From Patescibacteria group bacterium (lineage in GTDB: Bacteria > Patescibacteriota > Patescibacteriia > UBA1558 > GWA2-36-10): DNA of 64,000 nt. The stretch is from NCBI GenBank assembly GCA_041665545.1, contig JBAYIQ010000001.1:137911-201910 (forward strand). The letters run 5' to 3'. A program made the position numbers and the translations under genes. This document shows positions 12,763 to 58,757 of the stretch, in pieces; within the stretch, counting starts at the first letter, position 1; each line of letters starts with the position of its first letter. The notes under the pieces were generated by a model that saw nothing but the letters and a program-made list of their open reading frames with translations, made no database searches and was not told the DNA's origin.

Positions 12763-14079
12763 CTAGGCGGCTTCCGCACCCTCGGCAATGTAGGGTGCGA
12801 TCGACCCGAGCTGTCTGTCCACCAGGACACGCAACTCGCTGCGACCAGCGAAATCGGTCTTAGCCACAGCATCGACGGCCAGTTTGACGGCCGAGCCGAT
12901 ATCGGGATTATTGAGAGCGGTGACCAGAGGCATCAGCTCAGCCAGACGAGCATCGCCCTTGCCCTCGGCAGTGATCACTGCGATCCTCTTGTCGAGGGCG
13001 GTCTTGACGACATCGATACGCTTGGCCGCCAGCTCGTTCAGTCGAGCCTGAACCTCTGGGCTGGGTGTCGGGTCCTCAATCAGAACACTCTTTACCTTAT
13101 AGCCCGAAACGCTTTCCAGCCGGGCAATGGCCTCATCCCAGTTCGCGTCTTCAAAGACGCCGCCGACTTGGATCTTCTCCAGAGTTTGACCCTTAAGGAG
13201 AACCCGAAAGTCAGCACCGAAGATTTCACTCGCATACTTGACCAAGCCGGCATCAGTCCGCACCTCGGGCGGAGCAGACCAATAGGCATTCAGATTCTCC
13301 GGCCCATCAAGAATGGGGATGAACTTAACATTTACATCTCCCCCGACCTCGATATCGGGTTCACCATCAAGACCTGGGATCTTGCCACCAAGAGTAGGTA
13401 TTTTCTCAGTGACACAAGAGAGTTGTAAACCACGTCTTTCCAGGACGACATTGAATTCGAGACCTGGGGCATTCCTAGGAATCTTCGTCCGGTGGAAACC
13501 GTTGTAGAAGACATACTTGTCGAACATCCACCAGGCGTGAAAGCAACGGCGTCCGAACAGTTTCGGCGTCCATAGTTCCTGCTCCGGAACCTGAATGTTC
13601 ATGATGGCCATCGTAGATCCCGTGGCCAACGACCAAAAAATCACGGTCACCATGTGACCAAATGTCAGGATACCCAAGGTCAGGCACACGCCAGTCACAA
13701 TTGTCGAATAGAATGCCCAGGTGTCTCGCTTGTTGCCAAGCCACGGCCGCGGTTTGTAGGTGTAGTAGGCCTGTAGCGCCGTAATAGCCGCAACGAGCAG
13801 TGCCAACACCACACGAAACCACGGGAAATTGTGGGAGACCTCCTTACCAGCTGTCTTTCCAACTGTCACAGCTGTCTTTACGTCCTCAACTACAGCCGAC
13901 GGCGCAAAAAACAGCCAGTGATGGTTCCAGGAAGCGGCCAGCACTCCCACAGCCAGCAAGGCCGTGGTAATGATCGCTCTCCACCCCACCTTCAGCTTTG
14001 TGCTGTTATTGACCAGCGCGGCAACAACGGACACGATGATCGCAATCACCGCATCAAGGACGAACTTGTTCTGAAACAT
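12763..14079 (-). CDS. SPFH/band-7 domain membrane protein (HflK/C-flotillin-like), GC-rich horizontally acquired gene
   Basis: multi-TM N-terminus; C-terminal KAVDAVAKT..RIAVITAEGKGDARLAE SPFH-like region; GC content far above flanks; own consensus promoter and AAAGGAGGGG SD. Confidence 0.6.
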   Translation of the reverse strand: MFQNKFVLDAVIAIIVSVVAALVNNSTKLKVGWRAIITTALLAVGVLAASWNHHWLFFAPSAVVEDVKTAVTVGKTAGKEVSHNFPWFRVVLALLVAAITALQAYYTYKPRPWLGNKRDTWAFYSTIVTGVCLTLGILTFGHMVTVIFWSLATGSTMAIMNIQVPEQELWTPKLFGRRCFHAWWMFDKYVFYNGFHRTKIPRNAPGLEFNVVLERRGLQLSCVTEKIPTLGGKIPGLDGEPDIEVGGDVNVKFIPILDGPENLNAYWSAPPEVRTDAGLVKYASEIFGADFRVLLKGQTLEKIQVGGVFEDANWDEAIARLESVSGYKVKSVLIEDPTPSPEVQARLNELAAKRIDVVKTALDKRIAVITAEGKGDARLAELMPLVTALNNPDIGSAVKLAVDAVAKTDFAGRSELRVLVDRQLGSIAPYIAEGAEAA

Positions 14080-19379: not shown

Positions 19380-19530
19380 ACTTATTTAATAAACATGATA
19401 GTTTAACACTTTTTAACAGATTAGTCAATATATTTTTATTATAGCATATTTAACTATTTAATTAAACAAAAAACCAGTTAAAAAACTGGAGAAAAATAAC
19501 CGACTAGAAATGCAAAAAATAACTTATTAT

Positions 19531-19663
19531 CTCGTGCCCTTCGACGCTGAATGTCCCTCGACTTCGCTCGGGACACTCGATTCTTCAGAGTCGAATGGTC
19601 GGAGGTGCTGATAAGCACCGTAGACCACGAGTGAGACTTTTGCGAAGCAAAAGGCGAATCGAG
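19531..19663 (-). repeat. tRNA-3'-adjacent structured element, copy 1 (immediately follows CCA of tRNA-Thr; followed by terminator)
   Basis: RNA sense CTCGATTCGCCTTTTGCTTCGCAAAAGTCTCACTCGTGGTCTACGGTGCTTATCAGCACC...GAATCGAGTGTCCC..GGGACA..CACGAG; three hairpins plus two crossing long-range helices. Confidence 0.7.
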
Positions 19664-19739: not shown

Positions 19740-19754
19740 ATATAAATTAAATAT

Positions 19755-19879
19755 CTCGTGCCCTTCGGCTCACTCCGTTCGCTCAGGGCATTCGACTCCT
19801 TCGAGTGGTCGAAGTCCGAGGCAAAGCCGAGGGCGCAGACCATGAGCGAAGTTCCGAGCCTGCGAGGAACGGAGTCGAA
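19755..19879 (-). repeat. tRNA-3'-adjacent structured element, divergent copy 2 (between tRNA-Tyr and tRNA-Thr)
   Basis: starts CCATTCGACTCC right after ACCA and pairs with downstream GGAGTCGAATGG; shares CCATTCGACTC, GAGCGAA and terminal CGAAGGGCACGAG with copy 1. Confidence 0.55.
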
Positions 19880-29712: not shown

Positions 29713-29741
29713 TTGACAGGTTTTTAATTATATGCTATCAT
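29713..29741 (+). promoter_or_regulatory. promoter TTGACA-17-TATCAT upstream of candidate RNase P RNA
   Basis: ccttgacaggtttttaattatatgctatcat. Confidence 0.45.
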
Positions 29742-49562: not shown

Positions 49563-50735
49563 ATGGACAAAAAATTATACAAGTATTGGAGCGAGGAAGA
49601 ATTTAAAAAAGCCAAGGACTTTGCCGCCAACAAGCAAACTCCTTTTTTATTAATTGATCCTAAGCGCGTTGCTAAAAAATACAAAAGTTTAAAGGCCAAC
49701 CTACCCTTGGCCAAAATATACTACGCCATGAAGGCCAACCCGCACGATGAAATCATCAGGACTTTGGCTGACTTGGGCTCAAATTTTGATGTGGCTTCTA
49801 TTTTTGAAATACAAAACTTGATGGACTTGGGTATTGCTGGCGACCGCATGAGCTTTGGCAATCCAGCCAAAAAAGAATCAGATATTATATTTGCCTACCA
49901 ACATGGCATCAGGATATTTGTCACTGATTCCATGGATGATGTGCACAAATTAGCCAAAAATGCTCCTGGCGCCAAAGTTTTTTTCCGCTTACTATTTGAA
50001 GGCAATGGCGCTGTCTGGCCATTATCCAAAAAATTTGGTGCTCATCCTGATATGTTGTACAAACTTATCTTGGAAGCCAAAAATCTAGGTCTAGAGCCCT
50101 GTGGCATTTCCTTTCATGTTGGCTCCCAACAAAAAGATATTGGTCAATGGGATCACGCTCTTTCTTTGTGCAAATACATGTTTGACACTATGAAATCCGA
50201 GGGCTTGGAGCTCAAAGCTATCAACTTGGGTGGTGGCCTACCAACCAAATATGTCGGACCAATACCCAGTCTAAAAAAATACACTGACGTTATCAACCGT
50301 TTGCTTAGTGAAAATTTTGGCGACAATATGCCAGAAATAATGATTGAACCCGGCAGATATATTGCTGGCGACTGCGGTATGATCATCAGTGAAATAATTT
50401 TGATTTCCAAAAAATCCGAGACCTCTGAACATCGCTGGGTTTATATTGATGTCGGAAACTTTACTGGCTTGTGTGAAACCGAAGAAGTGATTTTTCCGAT
50501 CTACGCTGACCCAGAAATTTATCTTCCAGGACAAACCTCGGAAAGCGAAGTAATATTGGCTGGACCAACTTGCGATTCCTCGGATATTATTTACCAAAAC
50601 TACAAGCATAAATTGCCCGATGATCTCAAAGAGGGTGATCGACTGTATGTCATGAGCACTGGCGCTTACACCTATGCTTACAGCGCTGTTTGTTTCAATG
50701 GCTTTCCAGTTTTGAAAACTTATATCCTAAGATAA
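49563..50735 (+). CDS. fold-III PLP decarboxylase (ornithine/lysine/arginine decarboxylase family)
   Basis: YAMKANPHDEIIRTLADLGSNFDVAS (YAxKAN PLP-Lys motif), GGG loop, CDSSD. Confidence 0.8.
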   Translation: MDKKLYKYWSEEEFKKAKDFAANKQTPFLLIDPKRVAKKYKSLKANLPLAKIYYAMKANPHDEIIRTLADLGSNFDVASIFEIQNLMDLGIAGDRMSFGNPAKKESDIIFAYQHGIRIFVTDSMDDVHKLAKNAPGAKVFFRLLFEGNGAVWPLSKKFGAHPDMLYKLILEAKNLGLEPCGISFHVGSQQKDIGQWDHALSLCKYMFDTMKSEGLELKAINLGGGLPTKYVGPIPSLKKYTDVINRLLSENFGDNMPEIMIEPGRYIAGDCGMIISEIILISKKSETSEHRWVYIDVGNFTGLCETEEVIFPIYADPEIYLPGQTSESEVILAGPTCDSSDIIYQNYKHKLPDDLKEGDRLYVMSTGAYTYAYSAVCFNGFPVLKTYILR

Positions 50736-50836
50736 ACAAAAAAACGCCCTGCAATTTCTGTGGGGTGTTTTTTATTTTAAACAAAATTAAGAACGCGTCC
50801 CCGAAGAAACGCGTTCTGGAAAGAACAGGCCTACTT

Positions 50837-51253
50837 TCACTTGCTCACACTGGGAAAATGCGGGTCACGGTACTCGTCATTGTCGTCTTTGACAACGAAA
50901 GGAGAAACATCCTCCAAGCGCAACTCGGTGGTGCAGATGAAGGGTGACGACTCGACGACACGCGGTGGTTGAAACAGATTGGCCTCAGGAGTCAGCTTAG
51001 AGGCCAAAAAGTCCCGAATCCTCCTATGCCAGAGCAAGCCCAATGGCTTCTTGTTCTTCCTTTGCCAGACCAACTCCAAGCGCCAAGGCCTTTCCTCAGC
51101 CGTGATCGACACCTCCAAGCCACGATGGCTGATGTACTTCATAATCTCCGGCAACAGTAGCCCAAGCTGCTGACCCAGATGCCTCCTGACAGCCAAGGTG
51201 TTGACATGACGACCGTTAGCGAACTTAATGTCAGCTCTTTTCTTACCGACCAT
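50837..51253 (-). CDS. GC-rich hypothetical protein (cassette D), 138 aa
   Basis: AAGGAGGAA SD before ATG; promoter TTGACA-17-TATGTT at 51303-51331 (minus); GC-rich. Confidence 0.5.
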   Translation of the reverse strand: MVGKKRADIKFANGRHVNTLAVRRHLGQQLGLLLPEIMKYISHRGLEVSITAEERPWRLELVWQRKNKKPLGLLWHRRIRDFLASKLTPEANLFQPPRVVESSPFICTTELRLEDVSPFVVKDDNDEYRDPHFPSVSK

Positions 51254-51339
51254 GAGCTATTCCTCCTTGAAGGTTCAAGTGCCCCAAAAAATGGGAATAT
51301 GATAACATATAATATTTATCCCCTCTTGTCAATGGCAAA

Positions 51340-51372
51340 ACAAAAAAACAACCCAGTGGGTTGATTATTAAT
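51340..51372 (-). terminator. terminator of tRNA-Lys/structured-element transcript
   Basis: caacccactgggttg + T7 on minus strand. Confidence 0.55.
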
Positions 51373-51382
51373 AATGCATGCT

Positions 51383-51507
51383 CTCGTGTCCCTCGACTCA
51401 CTCCGTTCGCTCGGGACACTCGATTCGCAGGAATGAGAATGGTCGGAGGTGCGATAAAGCACCGTAGACCACGAGTGAGTCTTTTGCAAAGCAAAAGGCG
51501 AATCGAG
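51383..51507 (-). repeat. tRNA-3'-adjacent structured element, copy 3 (immediately follows CCA of tRNA-Lys)
   Basis: about 88% identical to copy 1 over first 70 nt; compensatory changes in hairpins (GGTGC-TTTATC-GCACC vs GGTGCT-TATC-AGCACC). Confidence 0.7.
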
Positions 51508-51584
51508 TGGTGCGCCCAGTAGGATTCGAACCTACGACCGTTTGCTTAAAAGGCAACTGCTCTACCAGGCTGAGCTATAGGCGC
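51508..51584 (-). tRNA. tRNA-Lys (anticodon TTT)
   Basis: GCGCCTA acceptor, anticodon loop CTTTTAA, T-loop GGTTCGAATCC, CCA encoded. Confidence 0.85.
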
Positions 51585-51666
51585 ATAAATATAAAAATAC
51601 GCAAATTATTATAGATTAATTATTGGGTATTGTCAATTTTGCTTTAATACACCTTTAGCGCTGTTA

Positions 51667-51695
51667 TTGACAAAAATAAATAAATATGATATAGT
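51667..51695 (+). promoter_or_regulatory. promoter TTGACA-17-TATAGT for DHH phosphoesterase cassette
   Basis: ttgacaaaaataaataaatatgatatagt. Confidence 0.5.
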
Positions 51696-51718
51696 AACGA
51701 ACTTGTTCTTTATAAACT

Positions 51719-51771
51719 CCTAATCAGAATTTTGTCCAGCAAATTGCCTGATAAAGCTCTGATTAGGAAAC
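51719..51771 (+). promoter_or_regulatory. 5'-UTR stem-loop (11-bp stem TCCTAATCAGA/TCTGATTAGGA with 29-nt loop)
   Basis: perfect inverted repeat between promoter and SD of DHH gene. Confidence 0.4.
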
Positions 51772-51800
51772 TATCACTTCTCTGAACTGGAGGACTTACC

Positions 51801-52700
51801 ATGGATTACCCGCGGAACTCGGTCTGCATCTATCACAGTGCGGACAATGACGGCGCTTGCAGTGCGGCCATCGCCAAGTTGGCGGCTCGTGTCAGACTGA
51901 TCCCCTGGAATTATGGACACCCCATACCCTGGGAGAGAATACCCGTCGGCGCTACGATCTTTGTGGTCGATCTGCTGCTCACCAGCCAGAACGACAACAG
52001 TGGTTTCCAGGACATGGAGCGCCTGCGCAAGATCGGTAAGCTCGTCTGGATTGACCATCACGACAAGGCCATCAACGACGCCAAAGTGTTGGGTTTGGCC
52101 TATGATGGCATCCAGCGAGTTGGTCAGGGCGCTTGCGCTTTGACCTGGGAATATTTCTTCCCCAACAAGCCCATGCCCGAAGCAGTCCGGCTGATCAGTA
52201 ACTTCGATGTCTTTGACCATAGGGAGGTAAAGACAGTCCATTTCCAGTACGGCTTGCGTGCTTGCAATGCCAAGCCCTGGATGGACATTTGGAAAGATCT
52301 TCTTAAGCCACCCTTCCAAAGCGATGCTCTGGTCAACCAGCTGGTCAGTGATGGTATCCCCATCACCAAGTACCTGACCTTGGAATTCGCCCGCTACATG
52401 CGAGTCTGTGGCTTCGAGACTATTCTCGACGGGCACCGTGCCATTGCGGTGAATCGTGCTCTGGTCAACAGCCAGATCTTCGAATCTGTACACAACCTCG
52501 AAGACTATCCGTTGCAGATGTACTTTTACTGGAGCTCTGACGGCTCATGGAAGGTGAGCATGCGTTCGCCCGACGGTCGCGTGAACTGTGCAGAACTCGC
52601 AGCCAAGTACGGTGGTGGCGGACACAGCCGAGCAGCCAGTTTCGTGTGCCAGGAACTGCGCTTTGAACTCAAAGGGCGACCTGACGCCGATCCTGACTGA
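51801..52700 (+). CDS. DHH/DHHA1 phosphoesterase (NrnA/DhhP-like nanoRNase or cyclic-dinucleotide phosphodiesterase), GC-rich cassette E
   Basis: motif I HSADNDGA, motif III WIDHHDKA, DHHA1 GGGGHSRAAS; GC-rich; TGGAGGA SD. Confidence 0.7.
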   Translation: MDYPRNSVCIYHSADNDGACSAAIAKLAARVRLIPWNYGHPIPWERIPVGATIFVVDLLLTSQNDNSGFQDMERLRKIGKLVWIDHHDKAINDAKVLGLAYDGIQRVGQGACALTWEYFFPNKPMPEAVRLISNFDVFDHREVKTVHFQYGLRACNAKPWMDIWKDLLKPPFQSDALVNQLVSDGIPITKYLTLEFARYMRVCGFETILDGHRAIAVNRALVNSQIFESVHNLEDYPLQMYFYWSSDGSWKVSMRSPDGRVNCAELAAKYGGGGHSRAASFVCQELRFELKGRPDADPD

Positions 52701-52711
52701 GTAACGAGAAG

Positions 52712-52745
52712 TTGATCCTGACCCCGGCTAGTGGCAACACTGGTC
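52712..52745 (+). terminator. GC hairpin terminator (GACCCCGG...CCGGGGTC)
   Basis: inverted repeat after DHH gene stop. Confidence 0.45.
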
Positions 52746-52855
52746 GGGGTCTTAAATTTGTTTATAATTTATAAATATTGGGTATAAATTGTATATAAAC
52801 CCGGCTTGAAAAAAGCCGGGAAATGGGTTAAGCTAATCCTACATTAAGCAAACCC

Positions 52856-54301
52856 ATGCTAAAAATACCTCCGCAAAACATAGAGGCTGAAGCCAGTATT
52901 TTAGGCGCTTTATTGATAGACAAAGAAGCCATCATCAAAGTAGCCGATGTTTTACGTTCTGATGATTTTTATAAAGACAGCCATGGCTTGATTTACCAAG
53001 CCATTCTTGATTTGTTTGAAAAGCATGAGCCAATTGATATTTTATCAATGGCCAATCGCTTGAGCGAAAAAAAACAACTGGAAGCAATTGGTGGCAAATC
53101 ATACTTAGCCGAACTGACAGCGTCTGTACCCAATGCTTCACATGTGGCCAACTATGCCAGCATTATCCGTAAAAAAGCCACCTTGCGCAAACTAGAACAA
53201 GCGGCCTCAGAAATCAGCGAATTTAGTTTTTCGGAAGATCAGGATGTGGAAAAATTATTGGATCGTGCTGAACAAAAACTTTTTGCTATTTCCCAGTCTT
53301 CGCTGAAAAGAAACTTTATACCCATCAAAAATGTTTTAAATGATGCCTTTGCTCGTATTGATGAATTACACAAAACTGGTGGCCAAGGCACCAGAGGCAT
53401 ACCTACTGGCTATACTGGTCTAGACAAAATCCTATCCGGTTTACAAAAATCCGATCTCATCATTTTGGCCGCTCGCCCATCTTTGGGCAAAACCACTTTG
53501 GCTTTGGACTTAGTGCGTCATGTGGCTATTCGTGCCAAAGTACCGGTCGGCATCTTTTCTTTGGAAATGTCCAAAGAACAATTGGTTGACAAACTGCTAG
53601 CGGCCGAGGCGCAAGTAGATCTGTGGCGCATGCGCACTGGCAAATTATCCGATCGTGAGGAAGATGATGATTTTCCCCGCATTGGCAAAGCCATGGGTGT
53701 GCTATCTGAAGCACCAATTTTTATTGACGACTCTCCTAACATCAGCATCATGGAAATCCGCACCAAAGCTCGTCGCCTCAAAATGGAACATAATTTGGGC
53801 TTTTTGGTAGTTGACTATTTACAACTCATGGACTCTGGTGGTCGCCAAGAAAACCGCGTCCAAGAAATATCAGAAATATCTAGAGCTTTAAAACAAATTG
53901 CCAGAGAGCTTGATATACCGGTCATGGCGCTATCTCAATTATCCAGAGCCGTGGAAAGCCGCTCGCCAGCCATACCAAAATTGGCTGACTTGAGAGAATC
54001 TGGCTCCATTGAACAAGATGCTGATATTGTTATGTTTATTTATCGCCGAGCCAAAGACAAAAGTCGCGGTGAGTGCCCTGAAGAAGAAAAATTTGTAGCC
54101 GAAATTCACATTGATAAACACCGCAATGGCCCGACTGGCTTGACCCGCTTATTCTTTGACGAAAACAAAGTAACCTTCAAAAACTTGGACACTGACAAAT
54201 CAGAAATACAAGATCAGACCGGCTCCGGCCAAGGCAATATCCAAGAGCCAATATCCAGCGAAGAATTCCCCGTGGCTGGCGGCTGGCAAAATATACCCTA
54301 A
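52856..54301 (+). CDS. dnaB: replicative DNA helicase DnaB
   Basis: N-terminal PPQNIEAEASILGALL; Walker A ARPSLGKTT; RecA-like C-terminal domain. Confidence 0.9.
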   Translation: MLKIPPQNIEAEASILGALLIDKEAIIKVADVLRSDDFYKDSHGLIYQAILDLFEKHEPIDILSMANRLSEKKQLEAIGGKSYLAELTASVPNASHVANYASIIRKKATLRKLEQAASEISEFSFSEDQDVEKLLDRAEQKLFAISQSSLKRNFIPIKNVLNDAFARIDELHKTGGQGTRGIPTGYTGLDKILSGLQKSDLIILAARPSLGKTTLALDLVRHVAIRAKVPVGIFSLEMSKEQLVDKLLAAEAQVDLWRMRTGKLSDREEDDDFPRIGKAMGVLSEAPIFIDDSPNISIMEIRTKARRLKMEHNLGFLVVDYLQLMDSGGRQENRVQEISEISRALKQIARELDIPVMALSQLSRAVESRSPAIPKLADLRESGSIEQDADIVMFIYRRAKDKSRGECPEEEKFVAEIHIDKHRNGPTGLTRLFFDENKVTFKNLDTDKSEIQDQTGSGQGNIQEPISSEEFPVAGGWQNIP

Positions 54302-55853: not shown

Positions 55854-55882
55854 TTGACAAGATATGAAATGTGTGATATAAT
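55854..55882 (+). promoter_or_regulatory. perfect consensus promoter TTGACA-17-TATAAT (cassette F, gene 1)
   Basis: ttgacaagatatgaaatgtgtgatataat. Confidence 0.6.
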
Positions 55883-55958: not shown

Positions 55959-56693
55959 ATGGAAAAGACCGAAAAGACCGCCTTTGCTGTTCTGCACATG
56001 AGCCGTCACGAATCCAGCTCGCCCCAAGCCAACTATGGCCTGGGAACACTGGGTCCCATGGACTACCGCGGAATCCCGGTTCGCTACCACCCCAATTCCT
56101 TCATGCGTGACTCCGGTTACCGCATGCTGGAAATCCAGCTCCCGAAGAACCAGAACGAAGCGGGAGTCGCGATGGCTGTCATGCACGCAGGTCAGATTCG
56201 GGGAGCCATCAGTTCCCTGCAGGATCAGCTCAACAGTCTGACACCGGAAAAGATCTCCCACTACAACCTGATGATCAACGAACTGCTTCGCAAGGGCTAC
56301 CTGATGCACAGCCAAGTCCTCTACTTCAAACCCTGGCAATCCGGTCTCGTGGCCAAGTACGGCTGGGGCATCAATGGCTCTGGTGGCATGGTCATGTTCG
56401 GACAGAACAACTTCGGACAGAGCTTCGGAGTACAGGCCGGACACCAGCTGGTGCAGGTGGTCTTCCGACCCACTCCGTACGCCGACGGACTGATCTGTCG
56501 CTACGGCTGGGGCATCACCGTATGCCAGCCGGAAAGCATCAAACGTGTGCTGAGTGGTCTGCGCAAGCAGCTCGACAACGCCGTGTTCTTCCAGGAGCAC
56601 GGCTGTCTACTCGAAGACTTCGATCGGCCGAGTCTGGCATGCCGACTGATCGCCCGTCAGGCGACCCACGCGTGCCAGCAAACCACCGCATAG
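55959..56693 (+). CDS. GC-rich hypothetical protein with duplicated YGWGI motif (alt start 55944)
   Basis: GGAGG SD 7 nt before ATG at 55959; repeats AKYGWGINGSGG / CRYGWGITVCQ; GC-rich. Confidence 0.5.
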   Translation: MEKTEKTAFAVLHMSRHESSSPQANYGLGTLGPMDYRGIPVRYHPNSFMRDSGYRMLEIQLPKNQNEAGVAMAVMHAGQIRGAISSLQDQLNSLTPEKISHYNLMINELLRKGYLMHSQVLYFKPWQSGLVAKYGWGINGSGGMVMFGQNNFGQSFGVQAGHQLVQVVFRPTPYADGLICRYGWGITVCQPESIKRVLSGLRKQLDNAVFFQEHGCLLEDFDRPSLACRLIARQATHACQQTTA

Positions 56694-56772
56694 CGAGCAA
56701 CTGCTTGCTACGGTGACAACGACAGGACATTTTCTGACGCCAAGCGTCTGAAGGTGTCCTGTTTTCTTATAT

Positions 56773-56800
56773 TGACAATAGCTATATTATATGCTATAAT
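56773..56800 (+). promoter_or_regulatory. consensus promoter TTGACA-16-TATAAT (cassette F, gene 2)
   Basis: ttgacaatagctatattatatgctataat. Confidence 0.55.
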
Positions 56801-56858: not shown

Positions 56859-57257
56859 ATGAGTCCGAAACAGCTTGCTGCCATCCCGTTCTGCATTTTG
56901 ACCGTAGTTGCCATGTTCTTATGGGTTGCCGGTCGTCCCACTGGCAAGCCCGACACAACGCGACTCTTCTCAATTGGGACTGATGCCCATCAGGTTCCGT
57001 GTGGTGACATCGGCTACGATGCCACCTTCCGCTACTATGCCGGAAACGACACGGCGGGCGTGACGGTAGCCAATCTCAATCCCGGGCTCGTAACGATCCA
57101 TCTCATGGATCGCCTGAGCAGGGATATCTACGGACGCAAACCCGTGCGGATCAACGGTGATCAGGCCAACCTGGAGATCATCAACAACGCCACCAATGAG
57201 GTGATTTGCCGCTGGCAGATCACCATCGATCGTCAGGTCGGTGTTGCCACCCGCTGA
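56859..57257 (+). CDS. GC-rich small secreted/membrane-anchored hypothetical protein (start revised to MSPKQLAAIPF)
   Basis: AAGGAGGGA SD precedes ATG at 56859; N-terminal hydrophobic segment; track ORF start 56754 lacks SD. Confidence 0.5.
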   Translation: MSPKQLAAIPFCILTVVAMFLWVAGRPTGKPDTTRLFSIGTDAHQVPCGDIGYDATFRYYAGNDTAGVTVANLNPGLVTIHLMDRLSRDIYGRKPVRINGDQANLEIINNATNEVICRWQITIDRQVGVATR

Positions 57258-58086: not shown

Positions 58087-58139
58087 CGAATGGTCGTAGA
58101 CCACGAGTGAGTCTTTTGCGAAGCAAAAGGCGAATCGAG
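58087..58139 (-). repeat. truncated copy 4 of tRNA-3'-adjacent structured element
   Basis: CTCGATTCGCCTTTTGCTTCGCAAAAGACTCACTCGTGGTCTAC then deletion of hairpin and distal half. Confidence 0.55.
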
Positions 58140-58224
58140 TGGTGGGCATAAGAGGACTTCCGCCTCCGCCCCTCACTTTGTTCGGGGCTATGGCGGACAG
58201 GCGAACCTCTGATTATTTTAGAAA
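58140..58224 (-). other. acceptor-stem-like structured element ending in GCCCACCA, 3' of tRNA-Val; pairs with sequence 5' of tRNA-Val (around 58340-58375)
   Basis: TATGCCC/GGGCATA, GGCGGAAG/CTTCCGCC, CCTGTCCGCC/GGCGGACAGG long-range complementarities flanking tRNA-Val. Confidence 0.4.
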
Positions 58225-58606: not shown

Positions 58607-58647
58607 AGAACCAAAAGAAAATAGCTTTTAGAATAAAGGTTGCCTGC

Positions 58648-58757
58648 CCGCCGAAGCTTTGAGCGTAGCGAGGAGCGAAGGCGGGAGAACCTGATGTCCT
58701 AACCGCTCGCCTCGCTTCGCGAGCGAAGCGGGTTAGACGATGGGGCCAAAACACTGG
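58648..58757 (-). pseudogene. fossil 5' half of tRNA-Glu with GC-hairpin insertion in D-loop and GC-rich tail
   Basis: GGCCCCATCGTCTAAC[CCGCTTCGCTCGCGAAGCGAGGCGAGCG]GTTAGGACATCAGGTTCTC vs tRNA-Glu GGCCTCTTCGTCTAGTGGTTAGGACACTAGGTTCTC. Confidence 0.5.

Follow-up and report, generated by a model that had tools for sequence, protein, structure and literature searches.

The 64,000-nt stretch of Patescibacteria DNA analyzed here (hereafter the window, with an overall GC content of 39.7%) harbors, between a gene for an ODC-like decarboxylase and dnaB, a tRNA-Lys(UUU) gene that is flanked on either side by a GC-rich protein-coding gene: p138, which codes for a 138-aa protein, and a gene here termed DHH, which codes for a 299-aa DHH/DHHA1 protein. 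Comparison with related contigs (designated L003, L004 and so forth) points to distinct histories for the two genes. On the basis of these alignments, the DHH unit is most parsimoniously read as a recent single-gene gain in the lineage of the window, and p138 is an ancestral, clade-restricted and fast-evolving orphan protein, not a recent import. The overall account, which we regard as reasonably probable, is that of a recent insertion of DHH from a virus pool beside an ancestral p138 and a conserved tRNA trailer RNA, with a recycling function of the enzyme and module recombination as its inferred components.

The old core layout of the locus has dnaB and tRNA-Lys in divergent orientation, followed by the tRNA terminator and by p138, which converges on ODC or ArgS. 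The insertion is delimited by close relatives, whose syntenic loci were located through p138 homologues and whose core proteins present 99% (DnaB), 97% (ODC) and 82-91% (ArgS) identity to those of the window. At the empty site of L003, L004 and L005 (...ATTATTGACAAATATTGGGTATAAATTGTATATAAG...) the dnaB upstream region runs directly into the tRNA-Lys promoter region and the dnaB promoter reads TTGACA-18-TATATA, whereas the window presents 1,101 extra bp between TTGACA (51667-51672) and AATATTGGG (52774 onward). The junctions were obtained from separate local alignments of each flank, and the two overlap on the promoter. The -35 hexamer of DHH is the one that serves the dnaB promoter in the empty site of the relatives; DHH is hence predicted to be read from a hybrid promoter, in which a resident -35 box is joined to a spacer and -10 box that came in with the insert, and dnaB to keep a weakened promoter (TTTATA-18-TATATA). 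The incoming DNA would constitute a complete 1.1-kb transcription unit, with promoter spacer and -10 box, 100-nt leader, Shine-Dalgarno sequence (SD), open reading frame (ORF) and terminator, and may have been inserted by recombination at repeated terminator/promoter modules, without an integrase. Two Logan assemblies, independent and derived from other sequencing runs, match the window at 100% identity over positions 51555-53589 and 51555-52993, respectively; both DHH junctions are therefore the same in independent assemblies, which argues that the insertion is not an assembly chimera. The DHH gene is also missing from the distant relatives L150 and L151. The latter carries an 80-aa GIY-YIG ORF (1742-1984, GC 0.28) in the very dnaB/tRNA-Lys spacer that holds DHH in the window, and this spacer therefore appears to be a recurrent insertion site.

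The interval 50791-52770 is among the few stretches of the window with at least 50% GC. The coding sequence (CDS) of p138 has a GC content of 0.53 and a GC content at third codon positions (GC3) of 0.67, and that of DHH reaches 0.55 and 0.68, respectively, in surroundings of about 0.40 GC; GC3 is 0.28-0.43 in eight core genes of the window. The codon usage of both genes correlates with that of the other GC-rich cassettes of the window (p249, p167 and p438), and not with that of core genes, and all five cassettes fall within a GC3 range of 0.64-0.74, be they new (DHH) or old (p138). The original prediction, made from the sequence of this region, had described GC-rich genes with consensus-like promoters and strong SDs on both sides of tRNA-Lys (AAGGAGGAA for p138 and TGGAGGA for DHH), and all these elements are present (Table 1). 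A consensus-pattern scan of the locus yielded six promoter-like sites where 2.3 were expected and seven terminator-like sites where 2.2 were expected; near-consensus promoters amount to 13 in the whole 64 kb.

Table 1. Features of the DHH/tRNA-Lys/p138 locus, copies of the trailer RNA motif and two further GC-rich cassettes (window coordinates unless a contig is given).
Feature	Position	Strand	Remarks
ODC-like decarboxylase gene	49563-50735	+	
p138 terminator-like hairpin	50817..50790	-	12-bp stem followed by a T-rich tail; same sequence in L003 and L005
p138 CDS	51253..50837	-	138 aa; NCBI WCV69_00965
p138 SD	between 51254 and 51332	-	AAGGAGGAA; short leader
p138 promoter	51332..51304	-	TTGACA-17-TATGTT; pattern match; promoter to CDS segment 51254..51332
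Hairpin CAACCCAGTGGGTTG	51349-51363	both	Bidirectional; minus strand is the T7-tailed terminator of the tRNA-Lys unit
Structured RNA element (trailer copy after tRNA-Lys)	51507..51372	-	GC-rich, ~135 nt, directly 3' of the tRNA-Lys CCA
tRNA-Lys(UUU)	51584..51508	-	
tRNA-Lys promoter	51636..51608	-	Perfect TTGACA-17-TATAAT
DHH promoter	51667-51695	+	TTGACA-17-TATAGT; 11/12 matches; TG extension
DHH insertion	51673-52773	+	1,101 bp; equally 51667-52767 (6-bp -35 hexamer ambiguity); versus empty site in L003, L004, L005
DHH leader hairpin	51718-51768	+	Leader of ~100 nt
DHH SD	51788-51794	+	TGGAGGA
DHH/DHHA1 phosphodiesterase CDS (predicted)	51801-52700	+	299 aa; NCBI WCV69_00975
DHH terminator-like hairpin	52720-52751	+	14-bp stem, 9 G-C pairs
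dnaB promoter after insertion (predicted)	52768-52797	+	TTTATA-18-TATATA
dnaB	52856-54301	+	
Trailer copies after tRNA-Thr and tRNA-Tyr	19530-19663, 19750-19879	-	
Shortened trailer copy downstream of tRNA-Val	58090-58140	-	
Trailer copy after tRNA-Lys of L003	L003 7055-7190		Also follows tRNA-Lys in L004
p438	12763-14079	-	GC-rich orphan; near-consensus promoter; hydrophobic N-terminal half, probably membrane-spanning
p167	56859-57257	+	GC-rich orphan; near-consensus promoter; N-terminal hydrophobic segment

The identification of DHH as a DHH/DHHA1 phosphoesterase, initially based on its DND, DHH and GGGGH motifs, is upheld by the full catalytic set (H12, D15-N-D17, D57, D85-H86-H87, D136 and GGGGH271-275), the members of which occupy invariant columns in an alignment of 49 family sequences. 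The protein hence carries the complete metal-binding and catalytic residues of DHH enzymes, together with the substrate-binding GGGH loop of the DHHA1 domain. The search against PF01368 and PF02272 that had been suggested for this gene succeeds in part: the Pfam DHHA1 model just passes (26.6 bits versus a cut-off of 25.9), and the DHH model PF01368 fails to reach its gathering cut-off (23.4 versus 28.1 bits), a result that reflects a sequence too divergent for the curated model, even though motifs and fold agree. The AlphaFold2 (AF2) model (pLDDT 92.3, pTM 0.86) matches 41 DHH-family PDB chains with a Foldseek probability of 1.00, and the best matches are Rv2837c, TM1595, PggH, DhhP and a pAp phosphatase (E = 1e-12 to 1e-10, 13-17% identity). 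RecJ, exopolyphosphatase and family II pyrophosphatase lie far lower in the fold ranking, with RecJ/GAN at ranks 36-42. Assignment to the NrnA/DhhP family, as originally proposed, turns out to be too specific, for the NCBIfam NrnA equivalog model NF053633 scores 32.1 bits against a cut-off of 350, in an alignment limited to the C-terminal 100 residues, and the true family is phrog_4771, annotated as 'DHH phosphoesterase' (E = 5.3e-37, 128.7 bits, residues 5-286). With NrnA-type enzymes (Bacillus subtilis NrnA, Rv2837c/CnpB, TM1595, Vibrio cholerae PggH and Borrelia burgdorferi DhhP) the protein shares the architecture of DHH plus DHHA1 in ~300 aa and the entire series of motifs (H-x3-D-x-D, D, DHH, D and GGGH), and they are its best structural matches. 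It differs from them in its low identity and in belonging to a separate, mostly virus-borne clade with conserved C20, C112 and C283 and conserved tryptophans. Sequence and model together thus mark the protein as a two-lobed, NrnA-like DHH/DHHA1 phosphodiesterase with an intact catalytic site that is not an NrnA orthologue. Its direct profile match is shared with the phrog_4771 proteins of Pseudomonas phage EL, Serratia phage 2050HW, Vibrio phage P2 and crAss-like phages; unlike these, the window gene stands alone in a bacterial chromosome, and the isolated phages present just 21-30% identity to it.

Among 5.8 billion proteins, the one identical to DHH is labeled hypothetical and stems from a Patescibacteria metagenome-assembled genome, and the next closest homologues, only 43-45% identical, come from contigs that are viral or unassigned. 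Of the best-hit contigs, the two that offer usable gene context resemble phages, one of them with ERF, YqaJ and a tail-like block and the other with SSB and terminase. Viral contigs of IMG/VR contain 286 relatives of DHH, with thymidylate synthase, DNA polymerase, MazG-like pyrophosphatase, DnaB-like helicase, portal and terminase as recurrent neighbors, and all-against-all BLAST of the neighbors revealed no conserved partner gene beside the viral loci. Distant copies were located by tblastn in 50 phage records, including those of the jumbo phages EL and 2050HW and of Vibrio phage P2. In prokaryotic assemblies (one genome per species) the cellular distribution is patchy, encompassing Pirellulales, Methanotrichaceae, Desulfobacterales, Nitrospira, Poribacteria and others, as well as five Patescibacteria whose copies are 28-34% identical to the window protein. 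As had been recommended, the phylogeny of the protein was inspected: the neighbor-joining tree is star-like, with viral and cellular labels intermixed, and places the window protein on its own long branch, apart from the copies of the candidate phyla radiation (CPR). Elsewhere the GC content of DHH homologues equals that of their flanks, whereas DHH of the window lies 15 GC points above its own; viral homologues span 27-63% GC. The proposal that DHH is foreign is thus well sustained by its absence from the same site in L003, L004, L005, L150 and L151, by relatives at 43-45% identity with CPR copies farther away, and by a composition unlike that of its flanks. According to these comparisons, the gene derives from a pool of stand-alone DHH/DHHA1 phosphodiesterases that is mobile and for the most part viral.

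The evidence on p138 leads in the opposite direction. Its relatives number about 20 in the whole protein collection, and orthologues or other members of the family hold one slot, beside ODC/ArgS, across eight Patescibacteria genomes. All relatives whose gene context is usable lie there (L003-L007, L088, L089, L150 and L151), 3' of tRNA-Lys in contigs long enough to include it and convergent with ODC or ArgS. The idea of foreign DNA having been received on both sides of tRNA-Lys consequently holds for DHH and not for p138. Identity among p138 proteins falls to 22-30% while DnaB stays at 81-99% in the same genomes. In the four closest genomes the ratio of nonsynonymous to synonymous divergence (dN/dS) is 0.18-0.25, against 0.01-0.13 for core genes, which marks p138 as a genuine protein kept by purifying selection, though under looser constraint than the core genes. 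L003 and L005 also retain the promoter, leader, SD and terminator of p138. No match was found for p138 in Pfam, PHROGs, NCBIfam or PADLOC, and its AF2 model is of moderate quality (pLDDT 74), with a weak YajQ-like resemblance. In three contigs of the more distant relatives a gene of ~200 aa lies directly upstream of the p138-family gene (L088 106-711, L089 128-724 and L150 5241-5837); its products are 27-41% identical between genomes and have no Pfam hit, the gene is missing from the window lineage, and the two genes may once have formed a single module.

Two signs of native origin had been named in the original prediction, namely descent within the lineage of the neighboring core genes and uniform codon adaptation, and p138 shows the former but not the latter. 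Its GC3 lies above that of the flanking core genes in every genome compared, by +0.07 in L089, +0.12 in L150, about +0.15 to +0.2 in L151, +0.22 in L088 and +0.24 to +0.31 in the window, L003, L005 and L007, and this excess persists even though synonymous sites are near saturation in the four closest genomes (dS ~1). The GC-richness of p138 is hence a persistent property of the gene for which recent transfer is no explanation, and GC-biased conversion at recombination-prone slots, selection or a common GC-richer reservoir are candidate causes. More generally, an unusual GC content by itself says little about recent transfer, for p138 is as GC-rich as DHH and predates the divergence of eight genomes.

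The DHH leader contains the perfect 11-bp stem with a 29-nt loop that had been noted between promoter and SD, in which TCCTAATCAGA (51718-51728) pairs with TCTGATTAGGA (51758-51768), and the structure proves to be real. The 29 nt between the arms pair further, in inner stems of 7 and 3 bp, and the leader folds at -28.7 kcal/mol, compared with -15 to -17 for shuffled sequences (z = -4.3). About 17 nt separate the predicted transcript start from the hairpin, and another 20 nt lie between the hairpin and the SD, which is hence not directly masked. It is unique in the window, and no 5' hairpin is common to the cassettes, the leaders of the others having z-scores of -1.5 to +1.3 and that of DHH alone being significant. 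Most likely, and as our best guess, it stabilizes the mRNA or tunes its translation. Rfam searches of 50.7-52.9 kb, at the gathering threshold and at E <= 10, recovered the tRNA only, with no match for the leader or for the element downstream of tRNA-Lys.

That downstream element is one copy of a repeated RNA-like motif of ~110-135 nt, which is also found at other tRNA genes of the window and in L003 and L004 (Table 1). A 17-nt core pattern retrieved at least 12 further copies in metagenome contigs among the 25 best matches listed; most of the other 67 pattern matches look like chance (scores of 21-23 versus 35-97, with the best 25 listed). Beyond the window and L003, loci with the motif are L186, L173, L213, L226, L168, L219, L218, L155, L230 and L195. 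Nearly all retrieved copies start directly after a CCA end, belonging either to tRNAs or to 3' ends resembling those of transfer-messenger RNA (tmRNA), the latter, judged by eye, being probably tmRNA 3' ends. In the consensus fold, the last two bases of the CCA, CA, are paired within a closing helix (P1); hairpin P2 displays clear compensatory changes, with UA, CG, GC and AU at the same positions; helix P3 consists of an invariant GGUC/GACC, and its inner hairpin P3a covaries as well. The tRNA-Lys copy has an additional hairpin, P4. The junction sequences CUCACUCGUGGUCUACGG and CCUCCGACCA are nearly invariant. The element is probably a tRNA 3'-trailer RNA motif, which could act either in 3'-end processing or as a small mobile element. 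At the corresponding position of L005 (6871-6985) the trailer is replaced by three tandem repeats of ~36 nt, each of them with hairpin-forming potential (CCATAAAC...GTTTATGG).

Terminator or promoter modules form the ends of three indels in or close to the locus: the DHH unit, the p249 cassette and a block in L005. The p249 cassette (GC 0.58, GC3 0.74) is a 918-bp promoter-to-terminator unit between the TTGACA hexamers 55854-55859 and 56772-56777, which the window shares with L003 (87% identity); L005 lacks it and passes straight on to the p167 promoter. The true start of p249 is likely the ATG at 55959, after GGAGG. The extra genes of L005, located between tRNA-Lys and p138, are flanked by two copies of the terminator CAACCCAYTGGGTTG-T7, of which the window has a single copy, the hairpin at 51349-51363, fused to the p138 promoter. 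Pfam, PHROGs and NCBIfam provided no match for p138, p249, p167 or p438. For the p167 protein, identity is 77-80% in relatives that reach 93-99% in their core proteins. Small GC-rich orphans occur also in core spacers of L150 (701-1078) and L151 (4680-5150), with GC3 values of 0.70 and 0.62 over a background of 0.25-0.40, and one of them adjoins the L21 gene, which is the slot of p249 and p167 in the window.

This organization resembles that of two phage systems. Morons, as described in HK97/HK022-type phages, come with a promoter and a terminator of their own and a GC content unlike that of their neighbors (PMC3594210). Like them, DHH is a single ORF with its own predicted promoter and terminator, a GC content of 0.55 between flanks of ~0.40 and no counterpart in L003, L004, L005, L150 and L151; unlike them, it resides in the chromosome of a cell, flanked by dnaB and a tRNA gene, and not in a prophage. 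Promoter/stem-loop (PeSL) modules mediate shuffling in T4-type phages (PMC2839356, PMC4122927), and here too strong sigma-70-type promoters and stem-loop terminators border orphan genes and indels between close relatives end in such modules. The differences are that the genome is cellular, that the modules share just their hexamers and 70-80% identity over ~30 nt, and that neither mini-circles nor recombination intermediates were observed. On these likenesses a broader proposal can be built, to the effect that the clade carries a chromosomal PeSL- or moron-like shuffling system in which autonomous GC-rich orphan units from a pool of ~55% GC come, go and are exchanged at fixed core spacers through recombination between repeated terminator/promoter modules. 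We consider it speculative and rather unlikely. Under such shuffling the pool could be a virus or plasmid reservoir, the phage-type DHH would be its latest recruit, and the high GC3 of old residents such as p138 would reflect either the pool or GC-biased conversion at recombination-prone slots.

Two further explanations of the locus compete with the recent gain of DHH beside a resident p138. The original prediction had invoked tRNA-Lys as an integration hotspot with GC-rich foreign DNA on both sides, that is, a classical tRNA-targeted island. Several features would suit such an island: the dnaB/tRNA-Lys spacer varies (DHH in the window, the GIY-YIG ORF in L151), the genes or repeats 3' of the tRNA differ among the window, L003, L005 and L150, a degenerate partial copy of tRNA-Lys precedes the intact gene in L003 and L005, and the codon usage of the cassettes is unlike that of core genes. 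The search for att-like repeats proposed at the time, however, found the 22- and 32-nt 3' ends of tRNA-Lys to be single-copy in the 64 kb, even with up to three mismatches; the interval 50.7-52.9 kb contains no integrase, its only supported ORFs being p138 and DHH; the DHH unit is located upstream of the tRNA-Lys promoter, not at the tRNA 3' end; and p138 is ancestral at its position. A tRNA-targeted island hence seems very improbable. The surroundings of DHH, with dnaB, tRNA-Lys, ODC and ArgS in conserved synteny, are not a phage or prophage setting. An integron-cassette reading was set aside informally, given that the units have their own promoters and that the interval is devoid of an integrase.

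The second explanation takes high GC as no mark of foreign DNA at all: it would be kept by GC-biased gene conversion at accessory slots or by selection on mRNA, and DHH would share this regime or pool. This is possible, if doubtful. The GC3 of the p138 family exceeds that of core genes in all eight genomes despite the protein divergence reported above, the five window cassettes have similarly high GC3 at any age, and GC-rich small orphans (p125 in L150 and p156 in L151) sit in core spacers of relatives. On the other hand, DHH is clearly new here and its viral homologues cover a wide GC range, direct evidence for gene conversion is missing, and polarized third-position changes in p138 (28 GC-to-AT versus 16 AT-to-GC) are not significantly different from the core-gene regime, with few changes available. 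The recent gain of DHH from a viral pool remains the reading that we favor.

With regard to function, motifs and fold suggest that DHH would act as a two-metal phosphodiesterase on short substrates with a free 5'-phosphate, candidates being nanoRNA or nanoDNA, linear dinucleotides (pApA, pGpG) and pAp, and would yield mononucleotides. In phages this activity might serve nucleotide supply, a role with which the viral neighbors in nucleotide metabolism and replication fit. Patescibacteria-type cells usually rely on nucleotide salvage, and in such a cell the enzyme may confer extra oligonucleotide-recycling capacity. Virus-borne DHH genes could also be conflict genes that degrade c-di-AMP, cyclic oligoadenylates or the signals of cyclic oligonucleotide-based antiphage signaling systems (CBASS), in which case a viral anti-defence function would here have been co-opted to reset or dampen signaling. 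A role against SMODS and type III CRISPR signals has been predicted for DHH phosphodiesterases of jumbo phages (PMC7824862), the family is mainly virus-borne, pApA, pGpG and c-di-AMP are substrates of its nearest relatives in structure, and DHH is an autonomous expression unit with strong signals. Nonetheless, PADLOC gave no match for DHH, p138, p249, p167 or p438, no cyclase or effector lies in the immediate vicinity, and the viral neighbors pertain to nucleotide metabolism, replication and packaging, with known anti-defence genes not among them; we therefore judge a conflict role to be unlikely. Still less likely is a minimal RecJ-like 5'-3' exonuclease for single-stranded DNA, engaged in recombination or replication beside dnaB. 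Such a role would agree with the ERF, YqaJ and SSB genes next to homologues in the best-hit phage contigs, with the recurrence of DNA polymerase and helicase genes and with the fold common to RecJ and GAN, but NrnA-type enzymes rank far above RecJ (E = 1e-12 versus 4e-6), the AF2 model of the 299-aa protein shows neither an OB-fold nor any further domain, and the adjacency to dnaB is an accident of insertion, as relatives have dnaB without DHH. Nucleotide recycling by an NrnA-like enzyme remains the function that we favor.

A number of observations weigh against the favored account as a whole. The junctions lie in AT-rich sequence, which blurs the precise crossover point and any duplication of the target, and the resemblance of the promoter modules, just 70-80% over 27-32 nt, is slight for homologous recombination. 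The closest homologues, at 43-45% identity, are too distant to point to a donor, and the phrog_4771-type family lacks any characterized member. The function of the leader hairpin is pure inference, and the minimum-energy fold of the leader includes a pairing between the 5' end and the SD that is missing from the centroid fold. As for composition, the polarized counts of p138 fit a slow decay to host composition and leave decay versus maintenance undecided, and a new DHH and an old p138 at equal GC3 (0.67-0.68) are not explained by a simple division into foreign and native.

Taken as a finding, the locus is well resolved yet ordinary, a gene gain beside a lineage-specific orphan. It nevertheless offers a base-pair-resolved example in which a very small, salvage-dependent bacterium appears to have gained a ready-to-express gene from a viral pool without an integrase, at the expense of splitting the promoter of the essential gene dnaB. 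What seems to merit closer attention is the module-bounded turnover of cassettes, together with the lasting excess in GC3 and the trailer RNA of tRNA genes. The analysis also draws attention to a large virus-borne DHH family, the substrate of which would indicate whether its members serve nucleotide supply or counter-defence.

Some minor observations concern tRNA genes and GC-rich DNA in the same genomes. In L003 (6876-6940) and L005 (6677-6750) the partial tRNA-Lys lies between the promoter and the intact tRNA-Lys and is interrupted by short GC-rich palindromes, for example TCCGCCAGCCGGCGGA or CTGCCTGCCGGCAGGCAGG. Upstream of tRNA-Glu(CUC), the window likewise has a sequence resembling tRNA-Glu that contains GC-rich inserts (~58620-58745, minus strand). 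Finally, the segment 29713-30489 of the window is a GC-rich island (53% GC) with no convincing long ORF, located between convergent near-consensus promoters (29713-29741 on the plus strand and 30489-30461 on the minus strand); it contains a 73-aa minus-strand ORF with a strong SD and could be a small protein gene or an unrecognized RNA gene.

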